From Acidobacteriota bacterium (GTDB taxonomy: Bacteria; Acidobacteriota; Vicinamibacteria; Vicinamibacterales; Fen-181): a stretch of DNA of 39,129 bases. The stretch lies in assembly GCA_003157675.1 (NCBI GenBank), contig PMKG01000469.1, forward strand, positions 2,262-41,390. The letters run 5' to 3'. The number at the start of each line of letters is the position of its first letter. The stretch's first letter is position 1. The position numbers and the translations under genes were made by a program. The notes beneath the pieces were generated by a model. It was given only the letters and a program-made list of their open reading frames with translations, searched no databases and was not told where the DNA came from. Below are positions 1 through 38,736 of this stretch, piece by piece.

Positions 1-1410
1 GATGGCCTCGTCGGCCCGGCCTTGTGCCGCCAGCCGGCCCGCCTCGAAATAGCGGTTGGCCACTGGCGCGAGATCCTTGGGGTCCGGCAGTTGACCGCCG
101 GGAACGTCCGGCGCCGCGTCCGGCAGGCCCGTCACGCGGCCCAGGGCCTCCAGCCGCTCCCGACCCGGCTCCGGCACGGGCGCCGGGACAGGCACCGGTG
201 TGTTCCCGACGAGCGCCTCGAGCGCCGCCCGCATCTCCTCCGCCGTCTTCGGATCGCTCGCGGCCAGGTTCACGCGTTCCTTCGGATCCTGCGCCAGGTC
301 GTACAATTCTGGGCGCGCCGAATTGATGTAGCGATACCGCCGCGTGGTCAGCGACGTGACCTCGCTCCAGCCGAAGAGAAACCGTGGCGCGAACGACTCG
401 GCGTACAGCTGCCGGTCGGGGAGGATCGCCGAGGGCGAGTCGAGCACGTGACGAAGCGTTCGCCCGCCGATCTTCGAGGGTCTCGGCGCGCCGACCAGGT
501 CGAGCACCGTCGGGGCGACGTCGATCTGCTCGACGAGCGCGTCCGAGTGACGGCCGCCACCGTCCCGGCGCGGGAGCTTGACGATGAGCGGCGTCCGGAT
601 GGCCTGCTCGTACAGGAACAGGCCGTGCCCCTGCTCGCCGTGATCGCCGAGGCCGTCGCCGTGGTCGGCCGTGAGGATCACGACGCCGCCGGTGTAGAGC
701 CCGCGCTTCTTCAGAAACGCGACCAGCTGTCCGACCAGGCCGTCCGCGTAAGCGACGCGCGCGTCGTAGGGGGACAGGCGCTTCGATCCTCCGGGCGCCC
801 CGGTCGCCGCCGCGGGCTCGTCGATCTGCAGGAACAGGAAGAAACGCGACGTGCCGATCGACTCGATCCAGTGCTCGGCCACCTGGAGCGACTTCGCGCC
901 GTCCCTCGCGCACGGCGCCGCCTCGTCCGCCGTGCCGGCGTCGCCCGTCCCGTCGTCGAAGAAGCCGAACGCCGCCCCGAGTCCCGTGCTGCTCCGAAGC
1001 AAACAGCTCGATACCACGCCGCCGGTCTTGAAGCCGCGCCGGTGCAGCCACTGGGGCAGCAGCGCCACGCCGGCCGGGACGGGAAACCCGGCGTCGTCAC
1101 GGACGCCGCTCTGAAACGGCAGGAGGCCGGCCAGCAGCGACACGTTCGAGGGGAGCGTGAGCGGCGAATGCGCGTAAGCTCGGTCGAAGATGACCGAGTC
1201 GGCCGCCAGCGCGTCGATGGCCGGCGTGCGGACCCGCTGGTAGCCGTAGACCGGCAGATGGTCGGCCCGCAGCGATTCAATCGAGACCAGGATGACCGGG
1301 CCGTAGGCCGGGCCGGACTCGCGGGCGTAGAACCACCCGGCGAGGGCGGCGGCCAGCACCGCGATCCAGATCAGGCCGACGACGAAGCGGTAGCGCCACC
1401 GGGAAGTCAT
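1..1410 (-). CDS. Sulfatase-like (alkaline-phosphatase superfamily) hydrolase/transferase with an N-terminal TM anchor. The 3' end runs off the window.
   Basis: Absent from the ORF track because there is no stop in the window. The minus strand from ATG 1410..1408 stays open to position 1 (470 codons). It reads MTSRWRYRFVVGLIWIAVLAAALAGWFY...VILVSIESLRADHLPVYGY...AYAHSPLTLPSNVSLLAGLLP...ILTADHGDGLGDHGEQGHG. These are the metal-ligand, nucleophile and DHG motifs of the sulfatase fold. The listed 22..1467(+) ORF is its Arg-rich antisense shadow. Confidence 0.8.
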   Translation of the reverse strand, partial: MTSRWRYRFVVGLIWIAVLAAALAGWFYARESGPAYGPVILVSIESLRADHLPVYGYQRVRTPAIDALAADSVIFDRAYAHSPLTLPSNVSLLAGLLPFQSGVRDDAGFPVPAGVALLPQWLHRRGFKTGGVVSSCLLRSSTGLGAAFGFFDDGTGDAGTADEAAPCARDGAKSLQVAEHWIESIGTSRFFLFLQIDEPAAATGAPGGSKRLSPYDARVAYADGLVGQLVAFLKKRGLYTGGVVILTADHGDGLGDHGEQGHGLFLYEQAIRTPLIVKLPRRDGGGRHSDALVEQIDVAPTVLDLVGAPRPSKIGGRTLRHVLDSPSAILPDRQLYAESFAPRFLFGWSEVTSLTTRRYRYINSARPELYDLAQDPKERVNLAASDPKTAEEMRAALEALVGNTPVPVPAPVPEPGRERLEALGRVTGLPDAAPDVPGGQLPDPKDLAPVANRYFEAGRLAAQGRADEAI

Positions 1411-8883: not shown

Positions 8884-10248
8884 CTACTCTCGCAGCTTGC
8901 GCATCACCCGGTCTTCAATCCAGTGCGGATCCCACCACTCCACCGGGTTGACCGGGTTGCCCTGCAGCAGGATCGAGAAGTGCAAGTGGTCGCCCGCCGC
9001 AAGGCCGGTCATGCCGCTGCGACCGATCTGCTGGCCCCTGGTCACGGTGTCGCCCGGCTTCACGCCGATCGACGACAGGTGGCCGTAGAGCGACTGCACC
9101 CCCATGCCGTGGTCGATGATGACGCAATTCCCGTAGATGCCCAGGTAGTCGGCGTAGACGACCTTTCCGTCGTTGCCGGCCAGCACCGGGATCTGCTTGG
9201 TGACGGCAAGATCGAACCCGAGGTGGACCTGCTGGTCGACTTCCTTCTTCTCGTAGTAATACGTCCGGTGATCGGCGAACTTCGACTCCACCTTCGCGTT
9301 GCCGAGCGGGATGAACGGGCCCTTCCACAGCATCTCGGGCGCGGTCTGCCTGGCGAGCGCCACGATCTTCTCGGCGTCGATGCGGCGAAGGGTCCGGTTG
9401 ATCTCGAGGAAGGCCGGCAGGTAGTCCTCGTCGGTGCGGACGGCGACCTTGAGCTCGGGCGAGTGCTCCAGGATCTCGGGGACGACGCGGTGGAGGAACG
9501 CGTCGTTCAGCTCGACGCGCCCCTTGGTGAACTTCTTCGTGAACGGCTTGTAGTCGAACGACGTCTGCGTGTGGTTGCCCGCTTCGTCCTGGGCCATCAA
9601 GCGGACCGGCGTCATCAGGTCCTGATCGTAGAGCAGCGCGAAGAAGGCCACGCGCAGCCCCGGGTCGGAGGACTTCACGCCCGCGCCGGACGCGGGGAAC
9701 CCCGGGTAGAACATGTCGCCGACCAGCACGCCGGACGTGACGTCCGGCGGCGACACGGTGTAGACGACCATCTCGGACCCGCCGAGGTTCACGTAATGAT
9801 GGGTCGAGACGGCGGCAACCCGCGGCGGGTTGAAGCGGGCCGTCACCTCGCGAATCGCGCTCGCTTCCTTCGTCCTGAGGCCGAACAGCGTCGTCCGGGC
9901 GGCGGTCACGACGATCCGCGCCGCGCCCGCCTGCAAGTCGGGGAGGGCGCGCTTGCCGATGGGCCGGCTGATCCGGATCTGGTCCGGCGTCTCCTGCTTG
10001 AGCGTGGCCGAGCCGGGCGCCGCCAGCGAGAACAGCGGCGTGCTCTTGCCGTTCTGTTCGAGGGTGATGTCGAGGCGGGAGAAGCGGGCCTTTGGCGTTT
10101 CGATCGTGACGTCGAGCACGGCGTCGACGCCGATCGCCTTCGCGGGCTGAAGCACCTGTATGGACGGCGCGGCGCCGCGGCTCGCGACGACGAAGACGAT
10201 GCCGGCGGCGACGGCGAGGATCACGAGGAAGCCGAGGAAGTAGCGCAT
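8884..10248 (-). CDS. Membrane-anchored M23 (LytM-type) metallopeptidase
   Basis: N-terminal TM segment MRYFLGFLVILAVAAGIVFVV. The C-terminal LytM motifs are IDHGMGVQSLYGHLSSIGVKPGDTVTRGQQIGRSGMTGLAAGDHLHFSILLQGNPVNPVEWW. Confidence 0.85.
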   Translation of the reverse strand: MRYFLGFLVILAVAAGIVFVVASRGAAPSIQVLQPAKAIGVDAVLDVTIETPKARFSRLDITLEQNGKSTPLFSLAAPGSATLKQETPDQIRISRPIGKRALPDLQAGAARIVVTAARTTLFGLRTKEASAIREVTARFNPPRVAAVSTHHYVNLGGSEMVVYTVSPPDVTSGVLVGDMFYPGFPASGAGVKSSDPGLRVAFFALLYDQDLMTPVRLMAQDEAGNHTQTSFDYKPFTKKFTKGRVELNDAFLHRVVPEILEHSPELKVAVRTDEDYLPAFLEINRTLRRIDAEKIVALARQTAPEMLWKGPFIPLGNAKVESKFADHRTYYYEKKEVDQQVHLGFDLAVTKQIPVLAGNDGKVVYADYLGIYGNCVIIDHGMGVQSLYGHLSSIGVKPGDTVTRGQQIGRSGMTGLAAGDHLHFSILLQGNPVNPVEWWDPHWIEDRVMRKLRE

Positions 10249-33184: not shown

Positions 33185-33613
33185 TCAGCGCTCGACGAGC
33201 GGGCCGATGTTCGCCAGCAGGAACGCGAACACGTCTTCGTCGGTGAGACCGTTGATCGGCGCCTCCGCCCTCAGCAGTCCCTCCTTCATCGTCAGATCGC
33301 GCCCGCGCTGCCGGCTCACCCGCGTCGCGACCTGCGGCGGATCGAGCGAGGCGTCGAGCCAGACCTCCATGAAATCGTCGGCGTGCCGCTCGGAGGCGAG
33401 CCGCACGGCGCCCTCCGGCGTGAAGATCGCGAAGGCGTGCCCCTCGGCCTTGGCCACGTTGGCGAACATCCGGAAGACGGGCGTCGCGACGTCGCGGAGA
33501 AACGCCTGGTAGGCGGTCGCCGCCAGGTCGGCCCGCGCGCGCCGTTCCGCCGAGTCCTTCTTGGCTTGTTCGAGCGCGTGCCGCAACTGGCGTCTGATGT
33601 CGGGTATTTCCAT
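33185..33613 (-). CDS. Hypothetical protein (142 aa)
   Basis: ATG start and good GC3 bias. MEIPDIRRQLRHALEQAKKDSAERRARADLAATAYQAFLRDVATPVFRMFANVAKAEGHAF; no family recognised. Confidence 0.5.
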   Translation of the reverse strand: MEIPDIRRQLRHALEQAKKDSAERRARADLAATAYQAFLRDVATPVFRMFANVAKAEGHAFAIFTPEGAVRLASERHADDFMEVWLDASLDPPQVATRVSRQRGRDLTMKEGLLRAEAPINGLTDEDVFAFLLANIGPLVER

Positions 33614-33665
33614 GACGTTTGGAATCGTACAATGGATCGCGTTCCGACACCATGAGGAGGCACGC

Positions 33666-33896
33666 TTGGCGATCGCGGTCTACTCGGGATCACATTGACA
33701 CGCCTGCACGAAGGTGAAGGAGTTTCTTTCACGAGCCGGGCGGGAGTTCACGGTGAAGGACGTCGACGAGGACCCGGCCGCGTTCGCCGAACTGGTCGCG
33801 CTCGGCCTGATGACGATCCCGGTGACGGTCATCGACCACCGGATCGTGCGCGGCTTCGACGAGAAGGCGCTTCGCGAGGCGATCGGGAACCTCTGA
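33666..33896 (+). CDS. Glutaredoxin/NrdH-like thioredoxin-fold protein (76 aa) with an in-frame TGA at the first redox Cys: candidate selenoprotein (U-H-A-C)
   Basis: SD GAGGAGG (33654-33660), a 5-nt spacer, then TTG 33666. The translation is MAIAVYSGSH-[TGA 33696-33698]-HACTKVKEFLSRAGREFTVKDVDEDPAAFAELVALGLMTIPVTVIDHRIVRGFDEKALREAIGNL. This is the canonical Grx-like layout (beta1, CxxC, helix, cis-Pro TIPV, GFD). The track lists only the 60-aa tail from GTG 33714. Confidence 0.6.
33703..33744 (+). promoter_or_regulatory. SECIS-like stem-loop downstream of the in-frame TGA
   Basis: The upper stem is GTGAAGG/CTTTCAC (33714-33720 / 33726-33732; 7 bp including one G.U). The apical loop is AGTTT (33721-33725) and contains GU. 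A possible lower stem is CCTGC/GCGGG (33703-33707 / 33740-33744). The stem starts 15 nt after the TGA. Confidence 0.45.
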
Positions 33897-33900
33897 GCAA

Positions 33901-34974
33901 TCAGCCGCGCCGCGCGAGGGCCACCAGGTCCGCGACCAGCGCGTAAGCCGTCTGCGTCAGTCCTCCGCCGAGCTGCACGACCGAGAACTCGCCGAGCAGG
34001 TCGGTCTCGAGGACGAGCGCGTTCTGCTGGCCCACGAGCGTGGCGAACAGGTGATCGGCCGGCACCTCCTCGACGCCCACCCGGACGCTCACGCCTGCCT
34101 CGCGCCGCTTGCCGCGCGCCACCAGCTTCACCCGCCTGCCGCGGGCCACGGCCTCCTGGACGATCTCGGCCGTGAGGCGGCCGATGCCGGTCCGATCGAC
34201 CTCGCGCGGCGTAATGGTCGCGCCCAGCAGCACGTTGGCGAGCGCGGCCGCCTTGGCCGCCGCGTCCCATCCGTCAACGTCGAGCGAGGCGTCGGCCTCC
34301 GCGATGCCGGCCGCCTGCATTTCGGCCAGCGCTTCGGCGAACGCCTGTCCCCCCTCCATCGCCGTGATGATGAAGTTGGTCGTGCTGTTGACGACGCCCG
34401 AGAAGCCGGAGATATGCACGGCGGGCAGTGTCTCGCGCACGAGGTTGAAGATCGGGATCCCGTCCATCACCGCGCCCTCGAACAGGAACCGGCGGCCGGC
34501 GGCGCGGGCGAGCGCCTCGAGTTCGGCGTAAGCGAAGGCCACCGGCCCCTTGTTGGCGGTGATGACGTGCGCCCCCTCTGAGAGCGCCGCGCGGACGTGA
34601 TCGATCGCCGGCTGACCGGCCGCGACGTCGAGCACCGTCGTTTCGACAACGACCAGGGGACGCGTGCTGCCCGCCGCGCAGGCGGCCTGGCGGATCACGT
34701 CGACGCCAGCGACTGGAGCCGACGACGGGCCGTTGTCGTCTGGCGTCGTGTCGAGCGATGCCAGCGACCCGCCCCGTTCCACGAGGTCCAGCGCGCGAGC
34801 GATGTCGAGGCCGCGCACGTCGCGGGCCACGCCGTGGCGCGCGGTGGCGATGGCGACGACGCGCGGCTCGAGACTGTGGTCGCGCCGAAGCTCCTCTGCG
34901 CGCTCGTCGAGCAGGCGGAGAAAGCGCCGCGCCACATTGCCGAAGCCGATCAGGACGAGGTCGGGACGAAACAT
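33901..34974 (-). CDS. hom: Homoserine dehydrogenase (short form, no ACT domain)
   Basis: The NAD-binding N-terminus is LVLIGFGNVARRF. The catalytic region is GAHVITANKGPVAFAYAELEALARAAGRRFLFEGAVMDGIPIFNLVRE...GFSGVVNSTTNFIIT. Confidence 0.8.
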   Translation of the reverse strand: MFRPDLVLIGFGNVARRFLRLLDERAEELRRDHSLEPRVVAIATARHGVARDVRGLDIARALDLVERGGSLASLDTTPDDNGPSSAPVAGVDVIRQAACAAGSTRPLVVVETTVLDVAAGQPAIDHVRAALSEGAHVITANKGPVAFAYAELEALARAAGRRFLFEGAVMDGIPIFNLVRETLPAVHISGFSGVVNSTTNFIITAMEGGQAFAEALAEMQAAGIAEADASLDVDGWDAAAKAAALANVLLGATITPREVDRTGIGRLTAEIVQEAVARGRRVKLVARGKRREAGVSVRVGVEEVPADHLFATLVGQQNALVLETDLLGEFSVVQLGGGLTQTAYALVADLVALARRG

Positions 34975-36859: not shown

Positions 36860-36972
36860 GAATCGTGCGATTTTGCGATCTAGGGATCTTGCGATCTGGG
36901 AACCTGGCGACCCTGTGGCCGTGACGCCGCCCGTTCTTCACTTCGCAAGATCGCCAAATCGCCAGATGAGCG
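36860..36972. repeat. Second copy of the GCGATC-rich composite palindrome
   Basis: The left arm is GAATCGTGCGATTTTGCGATCTAGGGATCTTGCGATCTGGGAA. The right arm is CTTCACTTCGCAAGATCGCCAAATCGCCAGATG. Its right end matches ...GCAAGATCGCCAGATG of the copy at 28861-28962. Confidence 0.8.
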
Positions 36973-37005
36973 CGTCGTGCGGCAAATCGCGCTAATATTT
37001 CTCGC

Positions 37006-38172
37006 ATGGTGCAAGAGAGCCGACCAGGCCCGGCCAGTCTCTCGCCCGACGAGATCCGGCGTTACAGCCGCCACCTCGTGCTGCCCGAGGTCGGCCTCGA
37101 AGGCCAGCAGGCCTTCAAGGCGGCGAAGGTGCTCTGCGTGGGCGCCGGCGGCCTCGGGTCCCCGGCCGCCATGTACCTCGCGGCGGCCGGCGTCGGCACC
37201 ATCGGGATCGTCGACTTCGATGTCGTCGACTTCAGCAACCTGCAGCGCCAGCTCCTGCACATGACGCACGACGTCGGCCGGCTGAAGGTCGACTCAGCCC
37301 GCGAACGGCTGATGGCGATCAATCCGGAGGTCCGCGTCGCGACGCACGAGGTCGCGCTCTCGTCGGCCAACGCGCTCGATCTGCTCTCGCGCTACGACGT
37401 GATCGTCGATGGCACCGACAACTTTCCGACGCGGTACCTGGTGAACGACGCCTGCGTGCTGACGCGGCGGCCGTACATCTACGGGAGCGTCTTCCGTTTC
37501 GAAGGGCAGGTGTCGATCTTCGCGACCGCGGGGGGACCCTGCTACCGGTGCCTCTACCCGGAGCCGCCGCCGGCCGGGCTCGTCCCGAGCTGCGCGGAAG
37601 GCGGCGTGCTCGGCGTGCTGCCAGGCATCATCGGGACGATCCAGGCGACCGAGGCGCTCAAGCAGATCCTCGGGGCGGGTGACTCGCTCGCCGGCCGGCT
37701 GCTGATCCTCGACGCGCTCGCCATGAAGTTCCGCGAGGTCCGCGTGCGCCGCGACCCCGAGTGCCCGGTGTGCGGCGACCACCCCACGATCCGCGAGCTC
37801 CAGGACTACGAGCAGTTCTGCGGCACCTCGATCGCCGCCCGGTCGTCTTTGCCCGCGGATTTCGACATTTCACCGGTGGAACTCTCGCACGCGCTCGATT
37901 GCCGCGACGCGCCGCTGCTGCTGGACGTGCGCGAGCCGATGGAATTCAAGATTAATCGACTCCCGAATTCCGTGCTGATCCCGTTCGGCAACCTCCCGGA
38001 CCGCCTGGGCGAAATCGACGCTACCCGGGACGTGGTGGTGTACTGCCATTACGGCATCCGGAGCGTTCGCGCGGTTGAGCTCCTGCGCGCCGCCGGGTTC
38101 CGCGCGAGAAACCTGCACGGAGGCATCGCGGCGTGGATCGACCAGGTCGACCCCACGATGTCCCGCTACTGA
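37006..38172 (+). CDS. moeZ: MoeB/ThiF-type adenylyltransferase with a C-terminal rhodanese domain (MoeZ-type sulfur-carrier activating enzyme)
   Basis: The N-terminal domain reads RYSRHLVLPEVGLEGQQAFKAAKVLCVGAGGLGSPAAMYLAAAGVGTIGIVDFDVVDFSNLQRQ, with CYRC...CPVC Zn motifs. The rhodanese active-site loop is VVYCHYGIRS. Confidence 0.85.
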   Translation: MVQESRPGPASLSPDEIRRYSRHLVLPEVGLEGQQAFKAAKVLCVGAGGLGSPAAMYLAAAGVGTIGIVDFDVVDFSNLQRQLLHMTHDVGRLKVDSARERLMAINPEVRVATHEVALSSANALDLLSRYDVIVDGTDNFPTRYLVNDACVLTRRPYIYGSVFRFEGQVSIFATAGGPCYRCLYPEPPPAGLVPSCAEGGVLGVLPGIIGTIQATEALKQILGAGDSLAGRLLILDALAMKFREVRVRRDPECPVCGDHPTIRELQDYEQFCGTSIAARSSLPADFDISPVELSHALDCRDAPLLLDVREPMEFKINRLPNSVLIPFGNLPDRLGEIDATRDVVVYCHYGIRSVRAVELLRAAGFRARNLHGGIAAWIDQVDPTMSRY

Positions 38173-38185
38173 AGCGCCCGGTCAT

Positions 38186-38233
38186 TTGATCTTCTGGCAG
38201 CAGAGGCATAAAATACGACTTGTGAGGTCGTAT
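38186..38233 (+). promoter_or_regulatory. Candidate sigma-70 promoter with an overlapping palindromic operator upstream of iscR
   Basis: TTGATC (38186-38191), a 17-nt spacer, then TAAAAT (38209-38214). The inverted repeat ATACGAC-N7-GTCGTAT (38213-38233) overlaps the -10 and the expected start site. Its half-sites resemble ATA...GACT / AGTC...TAT of Rrf2/IscR type-1 sites. Confidence 0.4.
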
Positions 38234-38271
38234 ATGTGCCCCGCGCCGTCTCGCGGGGCAGGTCGAGGTTT

Positions 38272-38736
38272 ATGCTCAGGCTGTCGAAAAAAGCCGATTA
38301 CGCACTGATTGCAATGAAGCACCTCGCGCTGCGCGAGGGCCATGGTTCGTCGAGCGCCCGCGAGATCGCCGAGCAGTATTCGATTCCCGTCGAGTTGATG
38401 GCGAAGGTCCTGCAGCGGCTGGCCCGGCGCGGGCTGCTGTCGTCGCAGCAGGGCACGCGCGGCGGGTATCACCTGTCCCGGGATTCGGAGACCATTTCGG
38501 TCGCCGACGTCATCCAGGCCATCGACGGGCCGCTCACGGTCACGGCCTGCTCGGCTCACGACGAGCGTTGCGGGCAGTTTGCGACCTGCAACGTCCGCGA
38601 CCCGCTCTGGAAGATCCGGGAACGCATCGTCACGGCGCTCGCCACCTGCAGCGTGTCGGAGATGGCATCGGAGAGCCCGGTGCCGGCCGTCGCCGCGCAC
38701 GCGTCGCCGCTCTCGAGCCTCCCGGACGCCCGTTAG
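38272..38736 (+). CDS. iscR: Rrf2-family transcriptional regulator (IscR-like, with a three-Cys cluster)
   Basis: [19 protein letters not shown]...[40 protein letters not shown] is the Rrf2 wHTH. The Cys ligand region is [17 protein letters not shown] prefer ATG 38272 over the track start at 38236. Confidence 0.8.

Follow-up and report, generated by a model that had tools for sequence, protein, structure and literature searches.

An in-frame TGA codon in the active site of a predicted selenocysteine-type glutaredoxin of Vicinamibacterales

The object of this study is a 39,129-nucleotide stretch of DNA (hereafter the window) of an Acidobacteriota bacterium from the order Vicinamibacterales (lineage Fen-181; assembly GCA_003157675.1, contig PMKG01000469.1, positions 2,262–41,390). 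In all likelihood, it carries a true selenoprotein gene at positions 33666-33896, predicted to encode a 76-amino acid (aa) glutaredoxin (Grx)-like oxidoreductase with the active site U-H-A-C, in which selenocysteine (Sec) would be inserted at an in-frame TGA codon with the aid of a hairpin located shortly downstream. Recoding of a UxxC Grx had been proposed for this locus in an initial annotation based on the sequence alone. This proposal is supported by (i) the presence of the TGA codon in 64 of 64 orthologous loci, (ii) selection on the N-terminal part of the protein, (iii) the existence of an ortholog with Cys at the same position, (iv) the invariance of the hairpin and (v) the occurrence of Sec in the native form of the protein of PDB entry 7C10.

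According to the proposed mechanism, translation would start at TTG 33666, and the invariant minimal hairpin would present its loop G-U to SelB carrying Sec-tRNA(Sec) at UGA 33696, leading to insertion of Sec at this codon instead of termination. In the resulting thiol/selenol-disulfide oxidoreductase, Sec11, placed at the N-terminus of helix α1, would act as the attacking nucleophile and Cys14 would resolve the selenenylsulfide, as in the Grx1 protein of Clostridium oremlandii. The terminal TGA 33894 is not accompanied by such an element and would be used for normal termination.

The organization of the locus is summarized in Table 1. The coordinates initially assigned to the Shine-Dalgarno (SD) sequence, the TTG codon, the in-frame TGA, the hairpin and the terminal stop proved correct to the base when compared with the raw sequence. 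As also reported there, the sole entry for this locus in the mechanically generated list of open reading frames (ORFs) is the 60-aa ORF with a GTG start. Translation from TTG 33666 yields LAIAVYSGSH*HACTKVKEFLSR..., so that the predicted product begins with M-A-I-A-V-Y-S-G-S-H-U-H-A-C. Apart from the in-frame TGA, no disabling changes are present in the window copy.

Table 1. Features of the predicted Sec-glutaredoxin locus, its neighbours in the window, and Cys-type relatives that keep the stem (CDS, coding sequence; bSECIS, bacterial selenocysteine insertion sequence; positions without a locus label refer to the window)
Feature	Position	Strand	Basis or remark
SD sequence GAGGAGG	33654-33660	+	raw sequence; 5-nt spacer before start codon
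TTG start codon	33666-33668	+	counterpart at codon -10 is ATG in 22 orthologs, TTG/GTG in 7 more
Predicted full-length Sec-glutaredoxin CDS, 76 codons + stop, Sec = codon 11	33666-33896	+	translation, Pfam, PDB match
In-frame TGA, predicted Sec codon (U11), first position of U-H-A-C	33696-33698	+	alignment with orthologs and 7C10
TGC, resolving Cys (C14) of UxxC	33705-33707	+	Cys invariant: TGC 55, TGT 8
Nucleotide-invariant block G-GTG-AAR-GAG-TTY-CTT-TCA-CG, encoding V-K-E-F-L-S-R	33713-33733	+	+17 to +37 from T of TGA
Predicted bSECIS core	33714-33732	+	7-bp stem 33714-33720/33726-33732; 5-nt loop A-G-U-U-U 33721-33725
T-I-P-V, cis-proline loop of thioredoxin/glutaredoxin fold	33813-33824	+	aligns with A-V-P-V of 7C10
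Terminal TGA, genuine terminator	33894-33896	+	raw sequence; orthologs swap stop codons here
60-aa GTG ORF, as called by gene callers	33714-33896	+	annotation artefact; C-terminal 4/5 of the predicted gene
142-aa gene (hyp142), divergent upstream neighbour	33185-33613	-	
Homoserine-dehydrogenase-like gene, convergent downstream neighbour	33901-34974	-	
Stem-keeping Cys form	L066:9980-10017		one CPYC clade, with L094
Stem-keeping Cys form	L072:1672-1709		same CPYC clade
Stem-keeping Cys form	L088:803-840		same CPYC clade
Stem-keeping Cys form	L091:6750-6787		same CPYC clade
Stem-keeping Cys form	L094, match 527-564	-	CPYC clade
Stem-keeping Cys form	L096:2690-2727		CPAC, 73% GC contig; exact hairpin sequence

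Protein fold, active site and conservation of the TGA codon

When U is taken as C, the Pfam Glutaredoxin domain (PF00462) is detected in the 76-aa product above the gathering threshold (E=1.9e-12; 47.7 bits, cutoff 22.9), and the match covers model positions 1-59 of 60. The best match among PDB sequences, identified with phmmer, is 7C10 (E=7.8e-14; residues 3-74), and a match of this extent establishes the fold. In this alignment the TGA column coincides with the first Cys of C-P-H-C; the segments U11-H-A-C14 and T-I-P52-V are placed opposite CPHC and A-V-P-V, respectively, and residues P52, V53 and T54 do not vary among the aligned protein homologs. Two features that define glutaredoxins, a C/U-x-x-C motif at the N-terminus of helix α1 and a cis-Pro loop, are therefore both present, and the initial assignment of the gene to Grx-like proteins, with the TGA codon in the place of the first Cys of CxxC, is borne out.

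Entry 7C10 is glutaredoxin-1 of C. oremlandii, a native selenoprotein with the natural motif U-P-X-C, whose catalytic Sec was swapped to Cys for crystallography (PMC7642778). Since the native protein contains Sec at the aligned column, the closest solved relative uses Sec at exactly the position in question. Moreover, Grx (PF00462, UxxC) belongs to the experimentally verified prokaryotic selenoprotein families (PMC13188914; Grx also in PMC2398784 and PMC1794560), in agreement with the earlier statement that thioredoxin-fold selenoproteins of the UxxC type are an established class.

All NCBIfam models that matched the protein scored below their curated cutoffs: the YruB-family model TIGR02196 (59.6 bits, cutoff 88.55), the NrdH models TIGR02194 (42.4, cutoff 85.75) and NF007657 (26.9, cutoff 131), and the Uxx-star models NF041212, NF041114, NF041211 and NF047338 (31.5/66, 24/97, 19.1/100 and 16.9/72, respectively). 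Because no NCBIfam model reaches its cutoff, the clade is without a dedicated annotation model. Judging from the resemblance of the sequence to redoxins of the YruB/NrdH type, the reductant of the protein may not be glutathione.

The ortholog set comprised 63 loci (approximately 20 kb each) retrieved in a scan of GTDB species-representative genomes which, together with the window, gave 64 sequences. Nearly all of the 63 loci are labelled as metagenome-assembled genomes (MAGs) of Vicinamibacterales, Vicinamibacteria or Acidobacteriota. This analysis revealed that TGA occupies the column in 64/64 sequences, and that TAA, TAG or a Cys codon never occurs there, while protein identity to the window copy ranges from 80% down to approximately 41%. 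Both flanks of the codon are conserved in frame across these roughly 64 species-level genomes, which is the outcome of the ortholog comparison that the initial annotation had named as a check. The possibility that the 63 loci are contaminating copies of one sequence was excluded by their divergence and by their different flanks.

Upstream of the TGA, the β1 strand ([IV]-x-V-[YF]-[SAT]-G) is kept in frame and its synonymous sites vary freely: Ile is encoded by ATC (33) or ATT (20), Tyr by TAC (27) or TAT (14), and both Val and the invariant Gly by four different codons. Since the amino acids are retained while the synonymous sites vary, the frame 5′ of the TGA is translated. An in-frame start codon is located 7–14 codons before the TGA in 55/64 orthologs, most commonly an ATG at codon -10, the site of the TTG of the window, and in the closest orthologs (L001, L002 and L004) the corresponding start codon is preceded by GGAGG. 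At the end of the gene, the orthologs have TGA (48), TAA (8) or TAG (7), i.e. stop codons are interchangeable there, unlike at the internal TGA. Furthermore, of 25 other Pfam-supported window genes, 15 terminate with TGA; as the main ordinary stop codon of these genes, TGA is not reassigned genome-wide.

A few loci of the set show irregularities. In L063 (~10022-10217) the frame shifts approximately 30 residues past the TGA, and in L015 (~10001-10201) an early stop occurs near the C-terminus (RGFDRRTR*); either may reflect an assembly error or real decay. L015, L055 and L057 carry the TGA form and are labelled as Actinomycetes, Bifidobacteriaceae and Betaproteobacteria MAGs; we suspect that these are mis-binned contigs rather than true occurrences outside Acidobacteriota.

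Among 5.8 billion proteins searched, 49 homologs were identified. As many as 48 of them are called as fragments beginning from or after (M/V)KEFLSR, mostly of approximately 60 aa, i.e. cut just past the TGA; most of the public calls are 47-67 aa long and are named “glutaredoxin” or hypothetical protein, with the active site missing. In a 48-kb metagenome scaffold matching the window (WOOD18-1...scaffold_541) the gene is likewise called as a 47-aa fragment. The mis-annotation by standard gene callers that had been predicted for this locus is thus general among its homologs. The remaining database protein, P0002, is a full-length (74 aa) ortholog with the motif C-H-A-C and 76% identity, and is the sole Cys form among the 49. 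Its called neighbours resemble the layout of the window, with an opposite-strand 142-aa gene upstream and an opposite-strand gene downstream. P0002 (C-H-A-C), 7C10 (CPHC) and Cys-type genes of other loci (L066, L096 and others) all align at the TGA column, forming the Sec/Cys pairs expected of a bacterial selenoprotein gene.

Hairpin downstream of the TGA codon

The stem of the hairpin (GUGAAGG/CUUUCAC) is separated from the TGA by 15 nt (33699-33713), and an extra A-U pair can extend it to 8 bp, leaving a GUU loop. A 71-nt region surrounding the hairpin folds at -26.7 kcal/mol, compared with -18.3 ± 2.5 kcal/mol for 200 dinucleotide shuffles (z=-3.4), none of which was as good. The 19-nt sequence of the hairpin occurs just once in the window, with 0 matches expected by chance even if 3 mismatches are allowed. 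The alignment of the 64 orthologs is gap-free from -6 to +62, and positions +17 to +37 are essentially invariant, synonymous third positions included. In the RNAalifold consensus of these sequences a single helix is kept, the 7-bp stem with an A-G-U-U-Y loop; its pairing over the family amounts to 98%, and all 64 sequences have the loop G-U. A single substitution is common, G/A at +23; the opposite base is U, and the pair persists (G-U in 32 sequences, A-U in 32).

Of the structure outlined in the initial annotation, the 7-bp stem, the AGUUU loop and the 15-nt gap are confirmed and are conserved in 64/64 sequences (the loop as A-G-U-U-Y); the possible 5-bp lower stem is specific to the window sequence. 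The extended lower helix is 53% paired over the 64 orthologs, no better than in shuffled sequences, and was rejected as a part of the element. Conservation of the hairpin in relatives, another check named at the outset, was found to extend to invariance at synonymous sites in the TGA forms.

The codons used within this block differ markedly in frequency from those in the remaining parts of the same genes. GTG (Val), GAG (Glu), CTT (Leu) and TCA (Ser) are each present in 63/63 TGA forms, compared with 35%, 71%, 8% and 6%, respectively, of the codons for these amino acids elsewhere. TTT (Phe) was found in 53/62 forms (16% elsewhere) and AAA (Lys) in 31/63 (AAA/AAG 31/32; 3% elsewhere). The hairpin is therefore under constraint at the RNA level. 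Since an invariant helix leaves no compensatory covariation, the evidence for this constraint is the freezing of synonymous sites on codons otherwise seldom used.

As a control, metagenomes were scanned for TGY-x-x-TGY-x-x followed by V-K-E-F-L in any codons, which yielded 25 distinct CxxC Grx-like genes. Their codons vary: Val is encoded by four codons and Leu by six, and Glu by GAG (17) or GAA (8). The 7-bp stem does not form in 19/25 of these genes, and the loop G is lost in 8/25. Because codons vary in the Cys forms, the hairpin is not imposed by the V-K-E-F-L peptide, and the freezing of codons is associated with the TGA.

The six Cys-type genes in which the stem does form are listed in Table 1. 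The shared stem of these CP[YFA]C forms, which originate from unrelated metagenomes, is GUGAAR...CUUUC[AG]C. In L088 it survives a U-A to U-G change, and in L072 and L091 the loop G is lost (GAA) although the stem is kept. It is possible, if rather doubtful, that the hairpin is older than or independent of the TGA: either an ancestral coding hairpin was exapted as a selenocysteine insertion sequence (SECIS), or these Cys forms carry a fossil SECIS after Sec-to-Cys reversions. The former would provide a concrete example of a Cys protein becoming a selenoprotein in one step, and the latter would document repeated Sec-to-Cys reversions. In both cases, an entire order of soil bacteria, abundant and for the most part aerobic, would depend on a Sec-Grx that current annotation fails to show.

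The hairpin was also compared with the bSECIS model, as defined in the legend of Fig. 2 of PMC13188914. (i) Its apical loop has 5 nt (3-9 allowed) and its upper stem 7 bp (4-16 allowed); the alternative 3-nt loop and 8-bp stem are also within these limits. (ii) The model requires a G at loop position 1 or 2 (N1-G-[G|U]-N-N2), and the loop reads A-G-U-U-U. (iii) The spacing between UGA and loop is 22 nt (33699-33720; 16-37 allowed) and is the same in all orthologs. (iv) For the minimum free energy (MFE; at most -7.5 kcal/mol), the bare 19-nt hairpin gives -6.0 to -7.1 kcal/mol and is thus slightly weaker; in a 57-nt context the MFE is -13.9 to -27.3 kcal/mol, and the hairpin is retained in 61/64 structures.

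A further pairing is possible between UGA 33696-33698 and UCA/UCG 33748-33750, approximately 50 nt downstream (columns 7-9 with 59-61 of alignment A2), in nearly all 64 sequences (U-A 38, U-G 24; G-C 57, G-U 6; A-U 61). A UGA sequestered at the base of a helix is reminiscent of long SECIS structures. The UCA/UCG partner consists of the Phe codon TTC plus the next base, and the pairing is probably a by-product of the conservation of this codon.

Selenocysteine decoding and alternative readings

Several observations weigh against the decoding of the TGA as Sec. On the side of the machinery, tblastn with E. coli SelA, SelB and SelD gave 0 matches to selA, selB or selD in the window and L001-L063; ARAGORN detected no tRNA-Sec in the window and L001-L060 (the only tRNA of the window is tRNA-Glu); and the gene table of approximately 9 kb of extra scaffold flank contains neither sel genes nor tRNA-Sec. 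The lack of sel genes in these stretches is uninformative rather than negative, since they represent small fractions of multi-megabase genomes. On the side of the RNA, no compensatory covariation occurs among the 64 sequences, in which the helix never varies. The -7.5 kcal/mol threshold is reached just with flanking sequence, whose pairing is not conserved, and no SECIS or other relevant match was obtained with Rfam, either at gathering thresholds (whole window) or at E<=10 (33640-33800). The six stem-keeping Cys-type genes demonstrate that the hairpin is not strictly tied to Sec, and V-K-E-F-L-S is also a protein-level trait of the Grx subfamily. Finally, 9/64 orthologs have no obvious start 7-14 codons upstream of the TGA, and an SD-like motif is detectable in just 18/64.

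Pfam annotation of about 30 window genes identified no sel genes and no recognised selenoprotein family besides the Grx. When approximately 1.1 Mb of related DNA was crudely scanned for further in-frame TGAs in coding-like sequence, same-frame gene junctions were all that was found.

At the level of the phylum, a 2006 survey recorded three selenoprotein families in Acidobacteria (PMC1794560, Table 2), and Occallatibacter riparius, with three selenoprotein genes, is counted among the Sec users (PMC12013277, Table 2). Nothing on selenoproteins of Vicinamibacterales was found in the searchable literature (queries combining Vicinamibacter or Luteitalea with selenocysteine gave irrelevant papers), and the main text describing BSepDB mentions neither Acidobacteria nor Grx. 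The conservation pattern, taken together with the precedent within the phylum, indicates indirectly that Vicinamibacterales decode Sec and keep a Sec-Grx almost universally. For the organism of the window, we infer that Sec is inserted at the UGA, that SelB binds the hairpin and that selA, selB, selC and selD are present in the genome.

Structures located downstream of stop codons can promote read-through in general, and neither tblastn nor ARAGORN detected Sec machinery in the window; both points would suit a UGA that is read through without Sec, by near-cognate insertion of Trp, Cys or Arg or by insertion of Cys, to give a W/C/R-xx-C protein. We consider this very unlikely. The position is that of the catalytic nucleophile of the fold, which is functional with Cys or Sec alone; if Cys were wanted, TGC would be simpler, yet TGA is found in every ortholog. 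In addition, the loop conforms to N1-G-U-N-N2, the SelB-type pattern in the bSECIS model, and the closest characterised homolog has Sec at this site.

It is extremely unlikely that the annotated 60-aa protein starting at GTG 33714, a piece of the glutaredoxin fold that has no redox motif, is the real product, with the upstream 10 codons and the TGA serving as a leader peptide (upstream ORF) or an element of the 5′ untranslated region. Such a gene structure corresponds to the calls of public pipelines (48/49 homologs are fragments), and the hairpin, which overlaps GTG 33714, could then be regulatory. However, the SD core is found before this GTG in 0/64 sequences, and the codon is buried in the invariant 7-bp stem, which is unfavourable for initiation. 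The upstream peptide forms the β1 strand and, in frame, the active-site x-x-C, aligning residue for residue with solved Grx structures; if it is removed, the Pfam domain loses its first quarter.

A similarly slight probability is assigned to the view that the hairpin is conserved for some role other than Sec decoding, such as stabilizing the mRNA, pausing translation during folding or binding a regulator, and follows the TGA only incidentally. The stem-keeping genes without TGA (L066, L072, L088, L091, L094 and L096), one of them through the pair-keeping U-A to U-G change, and the lack of covariation proving structure-specific selection in the TGA forms can be cited in its favour. Nevertheless, the loop G and the synonymous sites are frozen in 64/64 TGA forms and the Cys forms lose the loop G (8/25) or the stem (19/25). 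Both geometry and loop sequence correspond to the bSECIS model, and a TGA kept over such evolutionary depth needs a decoding signal, for which no other conserved structure is present.

That the locus is a dead gene, i.e. a CxxC glutaredoxin decaying as a pseudogene after a single TGC-to-TGA nonsense mutation, was the alternative named in the initial annotation and is virtually inconceivable: a lone in-frame TGA at a Cys position is indeed one mutation from TGC, and gene callers do see just a fragment, but the same TGA in 64/64 orthologs spanning ~41-80% identity, the amino-acid-level purifying selection on either side of it in one frame, the otherwise intact window copy and an internal stop that never drifts to TAA or TAG, as the terminal stop does, exclude it.

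Known systems, significance and genomic neighbourhood

The predicted Sec-Grx was compared with the related systems described to date. It shares with cGrx1 of Clostridium (Alkaliphilus) oremlandii OhILAs (7C10, 7C12, 7C13) the PF00462 domain, a similar size and Sec as the first residue of U-x-x-C, with approximately 43% identity over 72 aligned residues (counted from the alignment); V-K-E-F-L-S after the motif, the cis-Pro loop and the G-F-D motif are common to both. The two differ in the active site, U-P-H-C in cGrx1 and U-H-A-C (without Pro) here, and in their hosts, an anaerobic Firmicute and an aerobic soil Acidobacteriota bacterium, respectively. The Sec-Grx proteins catalogued so far (PF00462, UxxC; Geobacter sulfurreducens, accession no. 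WP_010943784.1; “Grx” and “Grx-like” of the Sargasso/GOS surveys) have the same thioredoxin fold, UxxC motif and Sec/Cys pair, and their CDS contains a stem-loop whose small apical loop carries a G. The surveys place this family in a limited number of species, whereas the predicted Sec form is near-universal in the present clade (64/64 loci).

The best NCBIfam matches, YruB (TIGR02196) and NrdH (TIGR02194), are small Grx-like redoxins of approximately 75 aa in which CxxC is N-terminal and G-F-(D/R) is C-terminal. The protein studied here is below both cutoffs, would have Sec in place of Cys, and contains V-R-G-F-D-E where NrdH has W-S-G-F-R-P. Like the bSECISearch consensus (E. coli fdhF/fdnG type), its hairpin lies in the CDS just past the UGA, at 22-nt spacing, and has a small loop with G-U in positions 2-3. 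It departs from this consensus in being minimal (7-8 bp), without a conserved lower stem, and in the stability of the bare hairpin (-6.8 vs. -7.5 kcal/mol). The bulged U of the E. coli fdhF element has no apparent counterpart in it. Uxx-star selenoproteins also have a Grx-like fold and are only weakly similar (31.5 bits to NF041212); family 1 of this group is distinguished by a UxxT motif and two Sec residues (PMC13188914), in contrast to the one predicted Sec in an N-terminal UxxC.

The Sec-Grx family is already established and the bSECIS model accommodates the hairpin; the locus represents neither a new mechanism nor a new protein class. The novelty is modest but useful: a predicted clade-wide, almost exclusively Sec-type Grx of Vicinamibacterales, mis-called everywhere and without a curated model, and an unusually rigid SECIS sequence that is also present without TGA in some Cys-type relatives. 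Its recognition corrects a systematic annotation error, as no NCBIfam or Rfam model captures the clade or its SECIS. Use of Sec in a widespread soil order would bear on selenium demand and redox biology in soils. The hairpin with frozen codons offers a clean training or test case for predictors of bacterial SECIS elements and selenoproteins, and the hairpin-keeping Cys relatives an entry point for studying the origin or decay of SECIS elements within coding sequences.

The Grx gene is monocistronic and is located between two opposite-strand genes, with no selenoprotein MsrA or other partner adjoining it. The divergent hyp142 gene has no Pfam or NCBIfam match. Among the 63 related loci, the homoserine dehydrogenase gene recurs downstream in 53, hyp142 upstream in 58 and a gene for a PilT-like ATPase upstream in 38. 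Most relatives have, between hyp142 and Grx, an additional gene of approximately 395 aa on the opposite strand (e.g. L025:8795-9982 and L038:8810-10000, minus strand). This gene, which from a reading of its sequence rather than a domain search looks like a family III CoA-transferase, was rejected as an operon partner of Grx. It is absent from the window (~33614-33665) and from the closest relatives (L001, L002, L004 and L043), where a 52-nt divergent intergenic region remains. No nrd genes were found near Grx in the Pfam annotation of the window or in the scaffold gene table, and nothing in the neighbouring genes points to a specific substrate or reductant.

At a distance of 3-15 kb from Grx (window 36970-38736 and beyond; L112:1-8000) are genes for a MoeB/MoeZ-like adenylyltransferase with a rhodanese domain and an Rrf2/IscR-like regulator, and a complete iron-sulfur cluster (ISC) operon with the members IscS, IscU, IscA, HscB, HscA, Fdx and IscX; a functional link to Grx is not implied. 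In the matching scaffold (L112:4955-6225) the gene calls split the IscS-like cysteine desulfurase into two overlapping parts (159 and 271 aa), whereas a near-identical contig from another sample (L113:5032-6225) contains a single 397-aa IscS-like gene. This difference is probably due to a frameshift error in one of the assemblies.

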